Source: Alphaproteobacteria bacterium (GTDB lineage Bacteria; Pseudomonadota; Alphaproteobacteria; MPNO01). Taken from it: a DNA stretch of 64,000 nt. The stretch is from the NCBI GenBank assembly GCA_965202905.1, contig OZ241868.1, positions 2,848,040-2,912,039 on the forward strand. Reading direction: 5' to 3'. Both the position numbers and the translations under genes were made by a program. Under the pieces are notes generated by a model. It saw only the letters and a program-made list of their open reading frames with translations. It was not told the origin of the DNA and made no database searches. Positions 31,452 to 42,713 of this stretch are shown here, piece by piece (position 1 is the stretch's first letter; the number at the start of each line of letters is the position of its first letter).

Positions 31452-31758
31452 CGCACGGCCGCCGTCACTCTGCGGAGAGCGCGGCGCCGGGGCTTGGCGC
31501 TACGGGTTCTACGCCGGACAGGCGTTGGACGCCGATGCCCTGATGGCCCTCAACCGACGGATCGACGCCTTTGCCGATGCGTTCGATGTCTTCAGACCCC
31601 ACTAGGCCCTCGGCAGACATCCCCCCGAGAGTATTTCGACCGACGCGCAGCCGACCGGAACCCTCCCGCCTCAATAATCCTGAACCCGGACGCCCCCCTT
31701 TGACTGCGGCTCACGCTGTCTTATTATGGCGCGAATCGAAAGGGAGGGCCGGCCGCTC

Positions 31759-32868
31759 GTGCAGCAAATCGATTACGCATCCAGCGCTTGTCCGGTGCGC
31801 GAGGATTTGATCGCCGCCCAGCGCACGGCGTGGCGGCGCCTTGCCGGGCCGGGGGCCTTCCTCGACGGTGCGCGCCGCGTGGCGGTCGCCCGCGAGGTGC
31901 GCAACGCGCCGTCCTGCGCGTTGTGCCGGCGCCGAAAGGAGGCGCTCTCGCCGTTTGCCGTGGACGGCGCCCATGACGGCCTGGGCGAGCTCGGCGAGAC
32001 CGAAATCGACGCCATCCACCGGATCGTCACCGATCCCGGCCGGCTCAGCCGCGAGTGGGTCGAGGGCCTGCTCGCCGCCGGGCTCGACGACCGGGAATAC
32101 ATCGAGATCGTCAGCGTCATCTGTGTCGTGACGGTCAACGACACCTTCCGCCGCGCGCTCGACCTGCCGCCGTTCGAACTGCCGGAGCCGGCCGCGGGCG
32201 CGCCGTCGGGCTATAGCGCGCCGGGCGCCAAGGCACATGACGGCTGGATCCGCTTGCTCGTTCCGGAGGATGTCGTCCCCGGCGACGGCGCGGTTTACAG
32301 CACGCTTGCGGTCTCGCCGGTGGTCAAGGCGCTGTCGCTGGTCCCCGAGGCCAAGCGGCATTACTGGGACCTCGCCGAGACGATGTACCTGCCCGGCGAA
32401 GAGATGCCCAACTTCGCAACCGGGATCAGGGCCATCGACCGTGTGCAGATGGAGATCCTCGCCACGAGAGTCTCCGCGCTCCATCAATGCGTCTACTGAA
32501 CCGGCTCCCATGCATTCATGCTCCGTGAGAGCATCCGGACTTCCGGGACCGCGTTCGATCTGCGCGCCGCGATGGGCCGGGCGCGCGGCGACGGCGGGGT
32601 CGAGAGCGGCCAGAACCTCGCCGACTTCGCCGAGGCGATCACGCTGCAAGACCGCGCCCGGACGGCCGGGCTACGCGATGTCCTGGCGCGCGAGCTGGGG
32701 GTGGAAGCCATGGTCGACGCCGCCGCTGTCGCTTCGGTGTTCCACGGCTTTGTCCGGGTCGCGGACTCGACGGGCGCGCCGCCGGCGGGCGCTTCGGGCG
32801 GCCGGGTGACGATGGAGTTCCGTGAGGAGCTTGGGATCAACGCGTTCTTCGGCGCCGCGCACCGCTAG
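31759..32868 (+). CDS. AhpD-like alkylhydroperoxidase-related selenoprotein (CxxU, UGA at 32497-32499)
   Basis: [24 protein letters not shown] continues in frame into ORF 32518..32868; hairpin ATGCTC-CGTGA-GAGCAT downstream. Confidence 0.82.
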
Positions 32869-36485: not shown

Positions 36486-38825
36486 ATGAGCGAAAAGGGG
36501 ATCGGGGCCAGCGTACTCCGCAAGGAGGATGGGCGCTTCATGACCGGGCGCGGCAACTACGTTGCCGACATCGCGGCGGCCAACATGGTCGATATCGCCT
36601 TCGTGCGCAGCCCGGTCGCCCATGGCCGCGTCATCGGCGTGACCAGGCCGCCGGGCGCCGGGAACCGGGTGCTGACGGCGGCGGACCTGACCGGCGTCGA
36701 GCCGATGCGGGCACCCTCCAGGCTGCCGGGCTACAAGGCCTCGGACTATCCGGCGCTCGCCACCGGCAAGGTGCGTTTCGTGGGCGAGCCGGTGGTGGCC
36801 TGCGTCGCCGAAACCCGCGCGGAAGCCGAGGATCTCGCCCAGGCGGTCGAGGTCGAATACGACGAATTGCCGCCGGTCGTCGACATGCTGGAGGCCCGCG
36901 CGCCCGACGCGCCGCTGGTGCATGAGGCCTGGGGCGACAACGTGGTTCTGGAGACCCGCATCGACGGCGACATGGACGATGCGATCGCCCGCGCCGCCCA
37001 CTCGGTGACGCGCGAGGTCCGGATGAGCCGGCAGGCGATGGTGCCGATGGAGGCGCGGGCGGTGCTCGCCCAATGGGACCACCGGATGGACCAGCTCGTC
37101 GTCTACACCTCGACCCAGGTGCCGCATTTGATCCGCTCCGGGCTCGCGATGTTCCTCGGGCTGGAGCAGCGCCGGGTCCGGGTGATCGCGCCCGATGTCG
37201 GCGGCGGGTTCGGGCTGAAATGCTATGTCCAGCCCGAGGAGCTGGTGGCATCCTGGTGCGCGATCGCCATGAACCGGCCGGCGCGCTGGATCGAGGATCG
37301 GCGCGAGCACCTGATCGCCGACGCCAACTGCCGCGAGCACCACTACCGGATCACTGCGCACGCCGACGAGACCGGCAGGATCCTGGGGATCGAGGGCGAG
37401 ATCACCGTCGATGCCGGCGCCTACTCGATCTACCCGTTCACCAACTGCCTGGAAGCCGCGATGGCCGGCGGCAATTTGTTGGGCCCCTATGCGATCGGCG
37501 CCTACCGGGCGAAGACCTGCACCGTGGCGACCAACAAGCCGCCGCTGGTGCCCTATCGCGGCGTCGCGCGGCCCGGCGCAGCGTTCGCGATGGAGACGCT
37601 CATCGATGCGGTGGCGCAGACCGTCGGGCGCGAGCCGCACGAGCTTCGCATCGACAACATGGTGCCGGCATCGGCCATGCCGTTCACCAACGCCGCCCGC
37701 AAGACCTTCGATTCCGGCGACTATCCGCTGGCCGTCGCCAAGGTCGCCGCGATGATCGACGTCGAGGCCGTCCGCGCGCGCCAGCGCCAGGGAGAGCCGG
37801 ATGGCAGGGTGATCGGGCTGGGCTTCGGCAGCTATACCGAGCAGACCGCGCACGGCACCTCGGTGTTTGCGAGCTGGGGCGTTCAGATGGTGCCGGGTTA
37901 CGAACAGGCCGGCGCCAGGCTGACCCCGGACGGCGGGCTGGAGCTCAAGGTCGGCGTCCAGAGCCACGGCCAGGGGATGGAGACCACGCTCGCCCAGATC
38001 GCCTGCGAGGTCCTGGGCATCGACCCCGCCAACGTCTCGGTCGTCCACGGCGATACCGGGGTGACGCCCTATTCGACGGGCACCTACGCCTCGCGCTCGA
38101 TCGTCATGGCGGGCGGCGCGGTCTCGCGCGCCTGCAAGGTCCTGGCCGAGCGGATGGCGACGATCGGCGCCCACCTGATGCAGTGCGAGCGTGACCAGGT
38201 CGTCGTCGCCGGCGGCGTCGTGTCGGGACCGGCCGGCGAGGTGCCGTTCTCCGAGATCGGCCGGGTCTGGTACATGAACCCCGAGGAGCTTCCGGGGGAC
38301 GTCGACATGGGCGGGGTCGAGGCGGTCATGGGCTACCGGCCCGATCCCGACCACGGCACCTTCTCGTACTCGACCCACGCCGTGGTGATCGCGCTCGACC
38401 CCGAGACCGGCGCGGTCGAGGTGCTCGATTACGCGGTCGTCGAGGATTGCGGCGCGATGGTCAATCCGATGGTGGTCAGCGGCCAGTGCCATGGCGGCGC
38501 GGCTCAGGGGATCGGCACCGCCCTGTTCGAGGAATCGCCGTTCGATTCGGCCGGCCAGCCGCTCGCTTCGACATTCGCCGACTATCACCTGCCGGGCGCC
38601 TCGGAGGTGCCGGCGATCCGCATCGAGCACATGATCACCCCCTCGCCGCATACCGAGTTCGGGCTGAAGGGGGTCGGCGAGGGCGGCACGATCCCGACCC
38701 CGGGCGCGATCGCGAATGCGGTCAACGACGCGCTCAGCGCCTTCGGGGCGGAGGTCGACCGGACGCCCATCACGCCGCGCCGCATCCTGGCGGCGATCGC
38801 GGCGGCACAAGGGGAGGCGGCATGA
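36486..38825 (+). CDS. Xanthine dehydrogenase-family molybdopterin-binding large subunit
   Basis: RKEDGRFMTG.G.Y, DVGGGFGLK, PYRGVARP, SHGQG, GTYASRS, KGVGEGG. Confidence 0.92.
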   Translation: MSEKGIGASVLRKEDGRFMTGRGNYVADIAAANMVDIAFVRSPVAHGRVIGVTRPPGAGNRVLTAADLTGVEPMRAPSRLPGYKASDYPALATGKVRFVGEPVVACVAETRAEAEDLAQAVEVEYDELPPVVDMLEARAPDAPLVHEAWGDNVVLETRIDGDMDDAIARAAHSVTREVRMSRQAMVPMEARAVLAQWDHRMDQLVVYTSTQVPHLIRSGLAMFLGLEQRRVRVIAPDVGGGFGLKCYVQPEELVASWCAIAMNRPARWIEDRREHLIADANCREHHYRITAHADETGRILGIEGEITVDAGAYSIYPFTNCLEAAMAGGNLLGPYAIGAYRAKTCTVATNKPPLVPYRGVARPGAAFAMETLIDAVAQTVGREPHELRIDNMVPASAMPFTNAARKTFDSGDYPLAVAKVAAMIDVEAVRARQRQGEPDGRVIGLGFGSYTEQTAHGTSVFASWGVQMVPGYEQAGARLTPDGGLELKVGVQSHGQGMETTLAQIACEVLGIDPANVSVVHGDTGVTPYSTGTYASRSIVMAGGAVSRACKVLAERMATIGAHLMQCERDQVVVAGGVVSGPAGEVPFSEIGRVWYMNPEELPGDVDMGGVEAVMGYRPDPDHGTFSYSTHAVVIALDPETGAVEVLDYAVVEDCGAMVNPMVVSGQCHGGAAQGIGTALFEESPFDSAGQPLASTFADYHLPGASEVPAIRIEHMITPSPHTEFGLKGVGEGGTIPTPGAIANAVNDALSAFGAEVDRTPITPRRILAAIAAAQGEAA

Positions 38826-39652
38826 AACCGGCCAAGTTCGACTACGCCCGGCCGGGCGACGTCCCGGAGGCGGTGCGCCTGCTGGGCTCGACCGGGGGGT
38901 TCAACAAGCCGCTCGGCGGGGGCATGTCGCTCGGCCCGATGATGAACCTGCGGCTCGCCCAGCCCGACCTCGTGGTCGAGATCCGCGGGATCGAGGCGCT
39001 CGGGCGCAGCGAGGACCGCGGCGATACGCTGTTCATCGGCGCCGGCGCGACGCACGCGATGATCGAGGACGGGAAGATCCCCGACGGCACCAACGGCATG
39101 ATGGGCTTCGTCGCCGGACAGATCGCCTACCGGGCGGTGCGCAATCGCGGCACCATCGGCGGCAGCATCGCCCATGCCGATCCGGCGGCGGACTGGCCGA
39201 CCGCGCTCCTGAGCCTGGGCGCCGATGCGGTCATCGCGGGTCCCGGCGGCGAGCGCCGGGTCGACCTGGCCGATTTCCAGCGCGCCGCGTTCACCGTCGC
39301 GCTGGAGCCCGATGAGATCGTCACCGGGCTCGCCGTCCCGAAACTCTCCGCGCAGGCGAAATGGGGCTACTACAAGATCTGCCGCAAGCCCGGCGAGTTC
39401 GCCGATTCGATCGGGGCCGCGGTCTTCGATCCGGCGCGCGGCTTCTGCCGCGTCGTCCTGGGCGCGACCGACGGCGCGCCGCTCCAGGTGCCGGCGCTCG
39501 CCGAGCGGATCGCGGGCTCGGGAAGTGGCGATGTCGGGATCGACGATGCGAAACAGGCGCTCGCCGGCCAGGGCGCGGTGTTCGACGACTACGATAGCCA
39601 GATCCATGCCGTCGCGCTCAGCCGGGCAATCAAGGGAGCATTCGCGTCATGA
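38822..39652 (+). CDS. Mo-hydroxylase FAD-binding subunit (CoxM-like)
   Basis: MKPAKFDYARP, GGMSLGPMMNLR, RNRGTIGGSIAHADP. Confidence 0.92.
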   Translation: MKPAKFDYARPGDVPEAVRLLGSTGGFNKPLGGGMSLGPMMNLRLAQPDLVVEIRGIEALGRSEDRGDTLFIGAGATHAMIEDGKIPDGTNGMMGFVAGQIAYRAVRNRGTIGGSIAHADPAADWPTALLSLGADAVIAGPGGERRVDLADFQRAAFTVALEPDEIVTGLAVPKLSAQAKWGYYKICRKPGEFADSIGAAVFDPARGFCRVVLGATDGAPLQVPALAERIAGSGSGDVGIDDAKQALAGQGAVFDDYDSQIHAVALSRAIKGAFAS

Positions 39653-40119
39653 GCGAGGTCTGCCTAACCATCAACGGCAGGGCCGTCAGCGCCTCGGTCG
39701 AGCCGCGCACCAGCCTGGCGGACTTCGTGCGCGAGAACCAGCGCCTGACCGGCACCCATCTCGGTTGCGAGCACGGCGTGTGCGGCGCCTGCACGGTGAT
39801 GATCGATGGCGAGCCGATGCGCTCGTGCATCACCTTCGCGGTGAGTTGCGAAGGGGCCACGGTGACCACCATCGAGGGTTTCGACGACGACGAGGTGATG
39901 GAAGACCTGCGCCAGGCCTTCACCGCGCATCACGGCCTGCAATGCGGCTACTGCACGCCCGGTATGCTGGTGACCGCGCGCGACATCGTCACCCGGCTGC
40001 CGGACGCCGACGAGAAGCGCGTCCGGCTGGAGCTGTCGGGCAATCTATGCCGCTGCACCGGCTATGTCGGGATCGTCCGGGCCATCCTTGCGGTTCTGGA
40101 CAAGCGCGCGGGCGCCTGA
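39649..40119 (+). CDS. Mo-hydroxylase 2Fe-2S subunit (CoxS-like)
   Basis: GCEHGVCGAC, QCGYCTPG, GNLCRCTGY. Confidence 0.93.
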   Translation: MSEVCLTINGRAVSASVEPRTSLADFVRENQRLTGTHLGCEHGVCGACTVMIDGEPMRSCITFAVSCEGATVTTIEGFDDDEVMEDLRQAFTAHHGLQCGYCTPGMLVTARDIVTRLPDADEKRVRLELSGNLCRCTGYVGIVRAILAVLDKRAGA

Positions 40120-40135: not shown

Positions 40136-41021
40136 TCAGGACGGCGTCGCCCAGGCGCGCTCCTCGTGGCCCGGCGCGTAGGCCATGTTGGTCTGGTCCG
40201 GGTTGCGGTTGACCAGAGGCCGGGCATAGAGCGGGTGGGTCATCGAACGGATTTCGTGCTCGAGCGTGAACAGCACGTCGCCGCTGTCGACATCGGTGAT
40301 GTCCATGAACCGGTATTGGCGCCGATCGTCTTCTTTGCTGATCAGCCCGCGTTCGCCGAGACGGCGATAGGGTCCGGAGAAATCCGCGACGTAGATCTGG
40401 ATGTGATGGCCGTCATAGGGCGCTTCCGGCGCATCGGTTTCGCGGAACACCAGCGATTGGCCGACGCCGGCGCCGACGCAGGCGGCCGGCGCGTCCTCGT
40501 TATCCTCGACCGCCGTCGGGGCGCCGAAGACCGTCTCGTAGAACCGCGCGATGCCCGCGGCCGTTCCCGACGGGACGTCCAGGCGCACATAGGGCATGCC
40601 GAGCGAAACACGGCCGAACCGCTTTCCGGGGCCGTGCACCCGGAACCGGTTGCCCCACGGGCAGGTCACGTCGACATGGTCGCTGGCGGGGCCGTTGGCG
40701 GGCGTGAAATCGAAGCCGGTCGCGGCCAGCGGCTCGCGGACGCCGTCCAGCCGCGCGAGCAGGCCCATCGAGGTCCGGGCTGACGAGCCCGACCGCACCG
40801 CGCAGCCTCTGGGCGTCGCCCGTCGGCAGGTGGAGCTGGCTGCGCCCGACATTGATCCACATATTGGTCACCCCGGTCACCAGATAGGGATCGCGGGTGA
40901 GCCCGAGCCCGGTGACGTAGAACAGCGTCGCCAGCCTCTGATCCGGCACGCGCACGTTGACGTGCTCGAGCGCGACGATGTTGCCGACATCCTCGGCCGT
41001 TCGATCGAAGGTCTTCGCCAC
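40136..41021 (-). pseudogene. VOC/glyoxalase-like hypothetical gene with a single-base frameshift near 40765
   Basis: N-terminus LEHVNVRVPDQRLATLFY...PDLDG continues as LLARLDGV in another frame; one extra G in GATGGGCCTG (minus strand). Confidence 0.65.
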
Positions 41022-41219
41022 GGTCCATCCCCCGGCTGGTTGCGGTCTCGATACCGGAAGCCTGGCAGCGTCCGGCGGTTGGATGTAGTCCACGCTCCGG
41101 CCGACAATCGGGACCGCCAGCCAGAGGGCGAGCGACAGCGCCCCGGCGCTCCGCAACCTCGTCGTCGTCGTCGGCGGCGGTAAGAAGGAGCCCGGCGTCC
41201 GCCCGCCACTCCCGACGTG

Positions 41220-41852
41220 TTACGCGCCGGGCTCTGCGCCGAGCTTCTCGAGCACCGCCTCGACCTCCGGCCGGTCGCGGTAGTCGCGGCTGGAGAACCG
41301 GTGGCGGACGATGCCCTCGGCGTCCAGCACGACGATCATCGGCTTGGCGAAGCCGTACCACCGGCTGGTCTTGGGCGCGCTCGGGTCGATCAGGCCGAAT
41401 GCCGAGATGATGCGCGAACCCTTGTCCGAAAGCAGGGGGTAGGCAATCCGCCTGCGCTCCGCGAAGTCGGCGAGTCTGGACGCAACATCGTAGGTGACCG
41501 CCGCCAGCGCGTAGCCGAGCCGCATAACCTCATGGATCTGTCGATTCCAGGCGACCGCCTGGGACTTGCAGTGGGGTCACCAATCGAAGGACCGGGAGAA
41601 TATCAGGATCAGCCCGCGCTTGCCGCGCAGCGACCGGAAGTCGCGCTCGACCCCCATGTGATCGTTGGCGACGATCAACGCCGTAACGTCGGCGCCGATC
41701 TCCGGTCCGAGATCGAGCCGATCGACGGCGTCGGCGGCCTGCGCCGGCGGGCCGACGAGCCCGCCGATCGTCAAAGCCGCCAGCGCGACAGCGAAAGCGG
41801 TCGCCCGCAGCAGCGCCCCGGCCCGATTCGACCGCGCCCGATTTGACCGCAT
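41220..41852 (-). CDS. Exported peroxiredoxin/AhpC-TSA-like selenoprotein (UxxC, UGA at 41579-41577)
   Basis: Signal peptide; LIFSRSFDW-UGA-PHCKSQ continues in frame to YPLLSD; SECIS-like hairpin CCAGGC-GGTC-GCCTGG. Confidence 0.88.
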
Positions 41853-41915
41853 CGATCTCTCCGCGTTAAGATGCGCCGTAGCCACGGCCGGAGCATGTAT
41901 GACCGGCCGGGAATT

Positions 41916-41933
41916 CATAATCAATTGATTGTG
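41916..41933. promoter_or_regulatory. AT-rich palindromic operator candidate in a divergent promoter region
   Basis: CATAATCAATTGATTGTG, near-perfect inverted repeat in high-GC DNA. Confidence 0.45.
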
Positions 41934-41987
41934 AGAAGTCGTGCGTGGATCGCAGAAGTCGTGCGCGGATCGAGCCGGTCGAGGGCG

Positions 41988-42713
41988 ATGACAGGCGGTC
42001 CCGATATTCTGGCGCAGATCGACCGGTCGCTGTCGGCGACCGGGTTGTTCGTGCGCGGCGGGTTCCAACCGCAGCCCGCCGACGGCGTGCCCGACTTGGC
42101 CGACGGTCGCCCGGCGCGGACCGTGGTCCTGATCGGCAATGCCGGCGGGGCTCTGTGGCGCGCCTTCGCCGCGGCGCGCGCCCGGGAGCCAGGCGCCTTC
42201 GATCCGCGTCACCCCATGGACCGATGGATGCGGCCGCGCATCGAAGCCGCTGCGGCCGCGCTCGGCGCCGAGCCGGTCTTTCCCAATGACGGGCCCCCGT
42301 TCGTTCCGATCCTCGATTGGGCCCAGCGCGCCGAGCCGGTCTACCGCTCGCCCATCGGCATCGTGATCCACCCCGAATTCGGTCTGTGGCACGTCTACCG
42401 CGCGGCGCTGCTGTTCGCCGAGCGACTGGATGTCGGGGCGCGCGAGGACCGGCCGAGCCCGTGCGAGACCTGCGCCGAACGGCCGTGCCTGAAGGTCTGT
42501 CCGGTGGACGCGTTCGAGCCCGACCGGTTCGCCGCCGAACGCTGCGCCGGCCATGTCGAATCCGCGGCCGGCGCGGCCTGCCGGGAGCGTGGCTGCCTGG
42601 CGCGGCGGGCCTGTCCGGTGGCCCCGGAAATGCGCTATCCGCGCGACGCCCAGGCCTTCCACACCGCGGCGCTGCTCGGCGCCGTCCGGCGCGGCTTCGG
42701 CGCCGCCCGATGA
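41988..42713 (+). CDS. 4Fe-4S protein with CblC/MMACHC-like motif
   Basis: VVLIGNAG, IHPEFGLWHVYRAAL, CETCAERPCLKVCPV, GCLARRACP. Confidence 0.75.
   Translation: MTGGPDILAQIDRSLSATGLFVRGGFQPQPADGVPDLADGRPARTVVLIGNAGGALWRAFAAARAREPGAFDPRHPMDRWMRPRIEAAAAALGAEPVFPNDGPPFVPILDWAQRAEPVYRSPIGIVIHPEFGLWHVYRAALLFAERLDVGAREDRPSPCETCAERPCLKVCPVDAFEPDRFAAERCAGHVESAAGAACRERGCLARRACPVAPEMRYPRDAQAFHTAALLGAVRRGFGAAR

Follow-up and report, generated by a model that had tools for sequence, protein, structure and literature searches.

The question raised by this locus is whether a TGA triplet inside a minus-strand reading frame of an alphaproteobacterial genome is a stop or a codon for selenocysteine (Sec), and what kind of protein is made when it is read through. 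The DNA analyzed, hereafter the window, is a stretch of 64,000 nucleotides from an Alphaproteobacteria bacterium (assembly GCA_965202905.1, contig OZ241868.1, positions 2,848,040 to 2,912,039), and the gene in question occupies positions 41852-41220 of its minus strand. The evidence taken together indicates that this is very probably the gene of a real selenoprotein, with an in-frame SECIS (the signal for insertion of selenocysteine) and a thioredoxin-fold product that is probably exported and would work in thiol/selenol redox chemistry.

The minus strand from 41852 to 41220 is a single frame of 210 codons and a TAA stop (41222-41220), with one internal in-frame TGA at 41579-41577. When this TGA is translated as Sec (U), it lies within a W-U-P-H-C motif and the product reads MRSNRARSNR...GLILIFSRSFDW-TGA-PHCKSQAVAWN...YPLLSD...GAEPGA-TAA. 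The N-terminal residues from the ATG at 41852-41850 are MRSNRARSNRAGALLRATAFAVALAALTIGGLVGPPAQAADAVD, and GLILIFSRSFDW stands immediately before the TGA. The parts of the gene and the evidence for each are as follows.

41220..41852, minus strand: coding sequence of the predicted selenoprotein, 210 codons plus TAA (translation with TGA as U; PF00578 match across the TGA; orthologs collinear on both sides)
41857..41862, minus strand: GGAGAG, a likely ribosome-binding site 4 nt 5' of the ATG (reading of the sequence)
41736..41852, minus strand: signal-peptide-like N-terminus, residues 1-39 (sequence; 19 of 19 aligned orthologs; helix 10-30 of the AlphaFold (AF2) model)
41577..41579, minus strand: UGA predicted to be read as selenocysteine, U92 (TGA conservation; Cys aligned in homologs)
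41568..41579, minus strand: redox motif U92-P-H-C95, where helix 93-104 begins (translation; secondary structure of the model; alignments to 3hdc and 5epf)
41547..41562, minus strand: putative SECIS hairpin CCAGGC-GGUC-GCCUGG, which also codes for Q98-A-V-A-W-N103 (comparative constraint)
41340..41342, minus strand: codon of the invariant Pro171, at the thioredoxin-type cis-Pro position and presumably in the cis conformation (alignments of orthologs and of Bcp4, 3hjp)

Conservation of the TGA was measured by a six-frame search over 41 genomes, namely this genome and 40 relatives. Strong matches (E <= 2.3e-41) were found in 27 of the 41 genomes, that is, in 26 of the 40 relatives, and the TGA is present in every one of them; identity among the relatives is 39-73%. 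Intact proteins were obtained from 19 of 20 fetched loci, with U in one alignment column. Their alignment (A1) has the invariant context R-S-x-D-W-U-x-x-C-x-x-Q-A-V-A-W-N, and its mean column identity across the Sec site is 64%. In one relative (G004, locus L037) extra TAG/TAA stops accompany the TGA and the gene appears degraded. The true stop codon at the end of the gene is TGA in 13 of the 19 intact orthologs and TAA or TAG in the remainder, which indicates that TGA is not generally reassigned in these organisms. Weaker six-frame matches (E >= 4.9e-8) are at paralog level. One of these, a second homolog on the minus strand of relative G006 (C1:695978-696445; 31% identity, E 4.9e-8), has one in-frame TGA, which could make it a paralogous selenoprotein.

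A scan of 185,579 species-representative genomes found 55 loci, nearly all of them from metagenome-assembled Alphaproteobacteria labelled Rhodospirillaceae, Rhodospirillales or Defluviicoccus. The peptide QAVAWN is present in 52 of the 55, and these were retrieved by a peptide pattern that demanded QAVAWN but permitted all synonymous codons. The Sec codon in these 52 loci is TGA in 51 and TGC in one (L053). The three loci that lack QAVAWN (L087, L091 and L092) are cysteine forms with S-R-S-x-D-W-C-x-x-C.

Cysteine homologs were further searched with a profile against 1.84 billion representative proteins, and 154 proteins were found at E <= 1e-30. A motif search at the aligned site in the best 150 of the 154 returned CxxC in 132, SxxC in 4 and WxxC in 1, with none or a different motif in the rest. 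Cysteine is thus the residue that stands opposite the UGA in homologs: as W-C-P-Y-C in the thioredoxin-family structure 3hdc, as CxxC in 132 of those 150 proteins, and as a TGC codon in L053. Because the aligned site is mostly CxxC, the Sec form is read as one branch within a large family of Cys proteins whose motif is xRSxDWCPxC. Two of ten Cys-form clusters that were looked up have a name, in both cases only 'peroxiredoxin', and no NCBIfam model scored this Cys-form family above its cut-off.

The relationship between the two forms was analyzed with a maximum-likelihood tree of 75 rows. The 52 Sec forms grouped with the Cys forms L053, P0004 and P0017 (support 98/87), and this Sec-containing group is separate from 19 Cys forms. 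The tree, whose Sec rows were gathered by the QAVAWN pattern and are therefore a biased sample, cannot be labelled with fewer than three changes, such as one gain plus two losses. L053 (1524-1573; on a contig labelled as an Acidobacteriota metagenome-assembled genome) is the sole ortholog with TGC, and it keeps the full QAVAWN hairpin. It is best read as a recent change from Sec to Cys with a relic SECIS. Transfer or mis-binning is possible, because its taxonomic label is unlike that of all other loci. The selB match in its host genome (G041) is limited to a C-terminal fragment, in an incomplete assembly; among four Cys-form host genomes, also incompletely assembled, selB scored above its cut-off in one (G043).

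The selABCD set that the preliminary description called for was found in the genome, a single contig of 3.87 Mb. Three genes scored above their curated cut-offs: selD with 311.9 bits, selB with 434.2 bits (model positions 1-577 of 581 covered), and selA with 558.8 bits, immediately 5' of selB. The tRNA for Sec has an Rfam score of 74.7 bits and was called by ARAGORN as tRNA-SeC with the anticodon tca. By analogy with standard bacterial Sec decoding, insertion of Sec at UGA92 itself would be expected.

The hairpin lies at 41562-41547 and its stem begins 14 nt past the UGA, exactly as had been described. The stem is formed by CCAGGC (41562-41557) and GCCTGG (41552-41547), with the loop GGTC (41556-41553) between them. 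The distance from UGA to loop is 20 nt, which falls within the 16-37 nt given for the apical loop of bacterial SECIS elements in PMC10778597; a 5/6-bp apical hairpin is named as the common core in other bacteria in PMC4607533. The likeness of the GGUC loop to that of Escherichia coli fdhF, proposed earlier, was borne out against the K-12 record, where the TGA is followed by 18 nt and then by a GGTC loop between GGTTGCA and TGCACC. Both genes thus have an in-frame element 3' of the UGA with a GGUC apical loop, and the spacing from UGA to loop is 18 nt in fdhF versus 20 nt here. The stem of the present gene is a perfect 6-bp helix with no bulged U, whereas the upper stem of fdhF (GGUUGCA/UGCACC) contains an additional U. 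SelB contacts the fdhF element at this bulged U and at the G and U of the loop. An Rfam scan of 41400-41700 (E <= 10) returned no bacterial SECIS family and a single chance match to a small RNA (16.3 bits versus a gathering threshold of 50).

The constraint on the hairpin is clearly visible in the orthologs. The hairpin sequence is identical in 46 of the 52 loci, and over 53 orthologs its four degenerate codons are nearly fixed: CAG in 52, GCG in 53, GTC in 53 and GCC in 51. In contrast, other invariant residues of the same proteins are encoded freely. The invariant Gly at -12 is GGG in 23, GGC in 18, GGA in 8 and GGT in 4; the invariant Ser at -4 is TCC in 23, TCG in 19, TCA in 8 and TCT in 3; and the invariant Arg at -5 uses four codons. 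This synonymous freezing is not an artifact of how the loci were collected, because the search pattern permitted every synonymous codon. The 50 distinct sequences have 300 stem cells, of which 299 pair, and only two internal stem changes occur, a G-U pair in L058 and a compensatory double change from G-C to A-U in L075. The Cys forms L087, L091 and L092 have no hairpin and carry the peptides GEALDWN, RQLSQLV and AQLADIV instead. At the level of sequence comparison, these data make a convincing case that the hairpin is a constrained RNA element tied to the TGA, with L053 as the exception.

The family of the protein was determined with profile models. Pfam PF00578 (AhpC-TSA) matched residues 64-184, across the TGA, with 64.3 bits (cut-off 26, E 1.3e-17), and Pfam Redoxin matched with 35.5 bits. 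AlphaFold was used to model the protein from the 19-sequence alignment, and the model (pLDDT 84.5) has the thioredoxin fold that the preliminary description had anticipated, in which U92 begins helix 93-104 after strand 80-85. The top Foldseek ranks are BCP/PrxQ peroxiredoxins (BcpB 5epf with E 3.5e-11, and also 3hjp), with TM values of about 0.81-0.85 depending on the target, and the ResA-type oxidoreductase 4nmu was found at rank 11.

The active site was compared by alignment with these structures. Against BcpB 5epf, whose TxxC motif is T-P-G-C, U92 takes the place of the Thr, C95 that of the peroxidatic Cys, and Ser88 that of the motif Pro. Against Bcp4 3hjp, the catalytic Arg of AKRSVFVID falls on Pro171, which is invariant in alignment A1; the neighboring residue 170 is K, T, R, S, L, V or Q among the orthologs. 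In the comparison with 3hdc, of the thioredoxin family, the W-C-P-Y-C of that protein stands opposite W-U-P-H-C. Since Sec92 and Pro171 occupy the sites of the Thr and Arg of peroxiredoxins, the active site is of the thioredoxin/TlpA type. The protein lacks the PxxxTxxC motif and the catalytic Arg of canonical peroxiredoxins and stays below the curated NCBIfam cut-offs. The earlier term 'peroxiredoxin-like' accordingly fits the fold and the Pfam family and does not fit the active site.

These features were compared with two groups of known proteins. The BCP/PrxQ proteins (BcpB 5epf of M. tuberculosis, Bcp4 3hjp of S. solfataricus and PrxQ 5iiz of Xanthomonas) share the fold and the domain size, but the present protein has Sec for Thr, Pro171 for Arg, Ser88 for Pro, and a predicted signal peptide. 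The TlpA/ResA/CcmG type (3hdc, 4nmu) shares W-C-P-x-C at helix 1, a conserved Pro before the next strand, an extracytoplasmic location (predicted for the present protein) and the Redoxin match. Unlike that type, the protein has Sec for the first Cys, scores 18.6 versus a cut-off of 170 with the ResA NCBIfam model, is nearer in fold to BCP than to ResA by Foldseek rank, and has no cytochrome-maturation genes near its gene. Weak similarity to SelL-related redox proteins (NF040769) extends over residues 67-157; membership in that family was ruled out at 32 bits versus a cut-off of 120.

An exported selenol/thiol oxidoreductase is the most likely identity of the product. For its role, reduction of disulfides or sulfenates is somewhat more likely than reduction of hydroperoxides, and direct hydroperoxide reduction is the less probable of the two while still deserving serious consideration. 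As a mechanism, SelB with Sec-tRNA(Sec) would serve ribosomes at UGA92 and would be held there by the GGUC-looped in-frame hairpin 14 nt past the UGA, so that Sec is inserted and termination does not take place. The precursor of 210 residues would be sent to the periplasm by a Sec-type signal peptide, leaving a mature domain of about 170 residues with a BCP/PrxQ-like thioredoxin fold and an active site of the thioredoxin/TlpA type. The selenolate of U92 would be the attacking nucleophile and would form a selenenylsulfide with C95, which a periplasmic pathway would then reduce again. The attack chemistry and the electron donor are both presumed here.

The gene could also encode a genuine selenoprotein that is a peroxidase, in which Sec92 reduces hydroperoxides directly, in the manner of glutathione peroxidase or a Sec-peroxiredoxin, with C95 as the resolving residue; this would be the earlier term 'peroxiredoxin-like' in its literal sense. 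Such a reading agrees with the AhpC/TSA match of Pfam, with BCP/PrxQ proteins as the nearest solved folds at the TM values above, with a thioredoxin-dependent thiol peroxidase as the best NCBIfam match, and with the alignment of C95 to the peroxidatic Cys of BcpB; peroxides, moreover, react fast with selenols. However, the peroxiredoxin signature is not preserved at three positions (Thr to Sec92, the motif Pro to Ser88 and Arg to Pro171). The NCBIfam scores are also far under the cut-offs, at 34 versus 140 bits for the best match and 20.6 versus 261, 19.8 versus 211 and 20.4 versus 260 for further peroxiredoxin models, and the W-C-P-x-C context is that of thiol-disulfide oxidoreductases such as 3hdc. 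A peroxidase is considered the less likely reading, and the oxidoreductase remains the preferred one.

Export was examined at the N-terminus. Residues 1-39 have a basic start, a hydrophobic core and A-Q-A before a conserved A-[DG]-A-V-D, and all 19 aligned orthologs likewise begin with a few basic residues, which are followed by a hydrophobic core and, ahead of A-[GD]-A-V-D, by an A-x-A-like site. The model places an isolated helix of low confidence (residues 10-30) ahead of the domain. No twin-arginine motif and no lipobox were seen in this protein. The protein is thus predicted to be exported to the periplasm, with cleavage at the putative A-x-A-like site. The genome contains a single gene for a DsbD/CcdA-type membrane reductase (73.9 bits), which adjoins another gene of the AhpC/TSA family; a periplasmic reducing route therefore exists, and its presence does not imply a link to this protein.

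Two studies provided three metatranscriptome-library runs whose contigs span 41265-41773, 41202-41753 and 41375-41718. All of these contigs have the same TGA and hairpin as the window, and one contig has three T>C differences elsewhere. The contigs are compatible with the transcription of one continuous message. The runs that hold this sequence are labelled as marine and sponge metagenomes. A contig from a DNA run (X5) has one base fewer in the run of five C at 41435-41439, where the three RNA-library contigs match the window; a homopolymer error or strain variation is the probable cause.

Several observations weigh against the reading of the gene as an exported selenoprotein with a SECIS. The single-sequence fold of 66 nt is not unusually stable (z = -0.03 versus shuffles), and a stem of at least 6 bp at that distance follows 3363 of 20000 random TGA triplets (16.8%) in this genome of 67.7% G+C. 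Because the hairpin alone is within chance, the SECIS case rests on comparison: the 'clear' SECIS-like hairpin of the preliminary description holds as a comparatively constrained element and does not hold as a signal above chance in one sequence. The covariation is weak by itself, because four of the six stem pairs are invariant, the double change occurs in one sequence, and 19 of 500 shuffles equal it. The amino acid invariance of QAVAWN is in part ascertainment, because the retrieval pattern demanded this peptide. No NCBIfam model scored the protein above its cut-off. The N-terminus was read by eye, and the RNA-library contigs are not proof of transcription or translation, because such libraries can contain DNA. 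When eight window neighbors were searched by tblastn against 74 loci, no neighbor conserved across the clade was found, and no hint of a substrate was obtained from them. Finally, the organism is known from an assembled genome alone, and Sec in the product is predicted from sequence.

Another reading is that the hairpin is no SECIS, and that the 18 nt are conserved only for the QAVAWN peptide while the UGA is decoded otherwise or not at all. Q98 and W-N are indeed frequent in the nearest Cys forms (QARAWN in P0004, QMVAWN in P0008), the covariation is found in one sequence, and the hairpin alone is within chance. Selection on a peptide, however, cannot freeze third codon positions as seen here (GCG 53/53, GTC 53/53, GCC 51/53). 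Both stem changes keep the pairing, as G-U and A-U, and Cys forms without TGA are without the element. In its position and its GGUC loop the hairpin agrees with the fdhF element of E. coli, which was defined by experiment, and its distance obeys the rule in PMC10778597; six further scanned candidates in the same genome have hairpins at the same distance. Conservation for the peptide only is therefore very improbable, and the hairpin is best taken as the SECIS of this gene. That the TGA is a true stop, leaving a pseudogene or a 91-codon exported peptide followed by a 101-codon open reading frame (ORF) at 41525-41220, can hardly be entertained: the standard ORF listing does split the gene so, the entries in public protein libraries are all either pieces of the C-terminus or artifacts that jump frame, and the L037 copy in G004 looks degraded with its additional TAG/TAA stops, but in 51 genomes, with protein identity down to about 40%, the TGA keeps a single alignment column flanked by W and P-x-C, both halves are conserved, one Pfam domain spans the TGA, the Cys forms are uninterrupted, and the full Sec machinery is in the genome.

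The selenoprotein reading was compared with published families. A Prx-like selenoprotein with UxxC was described by Zhang, Fomenko and Gladyshev in 2005 (PMC1088965), and 225 genes of 'Prx-like 1, pfam00578, UxxC' were counted in the GOS data in 2008 (PMC2398784). A 2026 review lists a 'Prx-like thiol:disulfide oxidoreductase, PF00578' as a family 'predicted with high confidence' (PMC13188914). The definition in PMC1088965 and PMC2398784, PF00578 homology with UxxC replacing the TxxU of Sec-peroxiredoxins, describes the present protein. It is further like that family in having many Cys homologs, in occurring in marine bacteria and in its uncharacterized function. The fit to these selenoproteins is one of family and motif description. 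The term 'signal peptide' has 0 occurrences in PMC1088965, PMC2398784 and PMC13188914. This kind of protein has been predicted computationally since 2005 and is not known to have been studied at the bench, and the present gene is an unannotated further member.

The number of selenoproteins in the genome was estimated with read-through family searches and scans, which gave about nine candidates. The preliminary description had proposed a second selenoprotein within 10 kb and a large selenoproteome, and both proposals were sustained: one candidate lies 9 kb away in the window, and the remaining ones are distributed over the genome as follows.

31726-32868 of the window, plus strand, TGA at 32497-32499: alkylhydroperoxidase-related (seleno)protein NF041238, 410.4 bits versus a cut-off of 175
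1249335 of the genome, plus strand: candidate peroxiredoxin with TxxU
2922228, plus strand: candidate cytoplasmic Prx-like protein with UxxC
2266567, plus strand: deiodinase-like candidate with T-U-P
1358987, minus strand: deiodinase-like candidate with T-U-P, outside the hairpin scan
1226757, minus strand: AhpD-like candidate with CxxU
3744899, plus strand: AhpD-like candidate with CxxU
196095, plus strand: UGSC-like candidate with U-S-T-C, fused to a large C-terminal domain

The neighboring gene at 31726-32868 scored above its curated cut-off; it has the motif H-Q-C-V-Y-U (CxxU), a Pfam CMD match across the TGA and a 6-bp hairpin with its loop 21-24 nt past the UGA. For the other eight, the evidence consists of motif and similarity to a family, plus a hairpin in those that were scanned. 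The six further scanned candidates each have a hairpin of 6-7 bp with a loop that starts 16-24 nt past the UGA, and in the UGSC-like candidate the stem is 9 bp long and its GGUC loop lies at 17 nt. Six of the seven candidates outside the window (all but 1358987) have a hairpin 16-21 nt past the UGA. None of seven molybdopterin-oxidoreductase matches has an internal stop. A crude genome-wide filter based on GC3 returned 142 in-frame TGA sites, 39 of them with redox-like motifs. This filter overlooked several candidates of the family searches and its relaxed version gave 66 mostly spurious sites, and its numbers are not a census. Two other in-frame TGAs, at 1946421 and 254959 on the minus strand, lie inside a CMD-family gene and a cupin-like gene. 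We take Trp (TGG) to be the usual residue at these sites in those families; a scan downstream of both sites found no hairpin, and the TGAs may be point mutations in pseudogenes or assembly errors and not Sec codons.

The threshold for a 'selenoprotein-rich' organism is six in PMC5029168, where this class is so far placed mainly in Deltaproteobacteria, Clostridia and Synergistetes, and nine candidates exceed that number. A literature search on selenoproteins of sponge symbionts showed nothing relevant among the papers listed. We tentatively suggest, with somewhat less than even confidence in the whole, an unrecognized selenoprotein-rich lineage of marine, sponge-associated Alphaproteobacteria. 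Such a lineage would have about nine thiol-redox candidates and no Sec molybdopterin enzyme detected, and its exported UxxC clade would have arisen once from a Cys ancestor. It would carry a SECIS that is invariant in nucleotides over more than 50 species, with at least one Cys reversion that kept a relic hairpin, and would be nearly invisible in protein databases.

The last property was clearly seen in the searches. In a standard ORF listing the gene is divided between the 101-codon ORF at 41525-41220 and the end of a long, spurious frame. When the read-through protein was used in a word-indexed search of 5.8 billion protein clusters, 2 of 5563 candidates were hits; both are of comparable length and read another frame around the TGA, so this search gave no usable homologs and returned no correct full-length protein of the Sec clade. 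The profile search found Sec-form relatives only as C-terminal fragments, two of which have the artificial starts MVQAVAWN... and MHQAVAWH... just past the motif. The expectation that standard annotation would miss such genes therefore proved sound, and the missing full-length proteins mean that the periplasmic redox capacity of these marine Alphaproteobacteria is under-counted. The gene leaves the knowledge of how selenoproteins work unchanged. It is a clean natural case of six codons that serve doubly, encoding QAVAWN and at once building the hairpin by which the stop upstream is recoded, and a Cys revertant keeps the relic of this hairpin. The hairpin could suit tests of heterologous Sec insertion, because its GGUC loop is the same as that of E. 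coli fdhF.

The neighborhood of the gene was also described. An all-against-all clustering of ORFs from the neighborhoods was swamped by spurious shadow ORFs at high G+C, and no partner emerged from it. The downstream gene at about 41075-40136 on the minus strand is glyoxalase/VOC-like and is split over two frames, with the break near 40765-40775. An apparent extra C in 'gggcc' could account for the break, as a real frameshift or an assembly error. In relative L022, the same gene is intact (292 aa; Pfam Glyoxalase, 22.8 bits). This VOC-like gene was found in 23 of the 74 loci, and in 11 of the 55 loci from species-representative genomes. Past it, at 36486-40119 on the plus strand, lies a molybdenum hydroxylase cluster (xanthine/CO-dehydrogenase type), whose three genes encode molybdopterin-binding, FAD-binding and 2Fe-2S subunits. 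The divergent upstream gene is a 280-codon ORF at 41871-42713 on the plus strand with a Cys-rich, Fe-S-like stretch (LdpA Fe-S Pfam, 16.9 bits, below the cut-off). It was found in 4 of the 74 loci and is conserved in the two closest genomes only.

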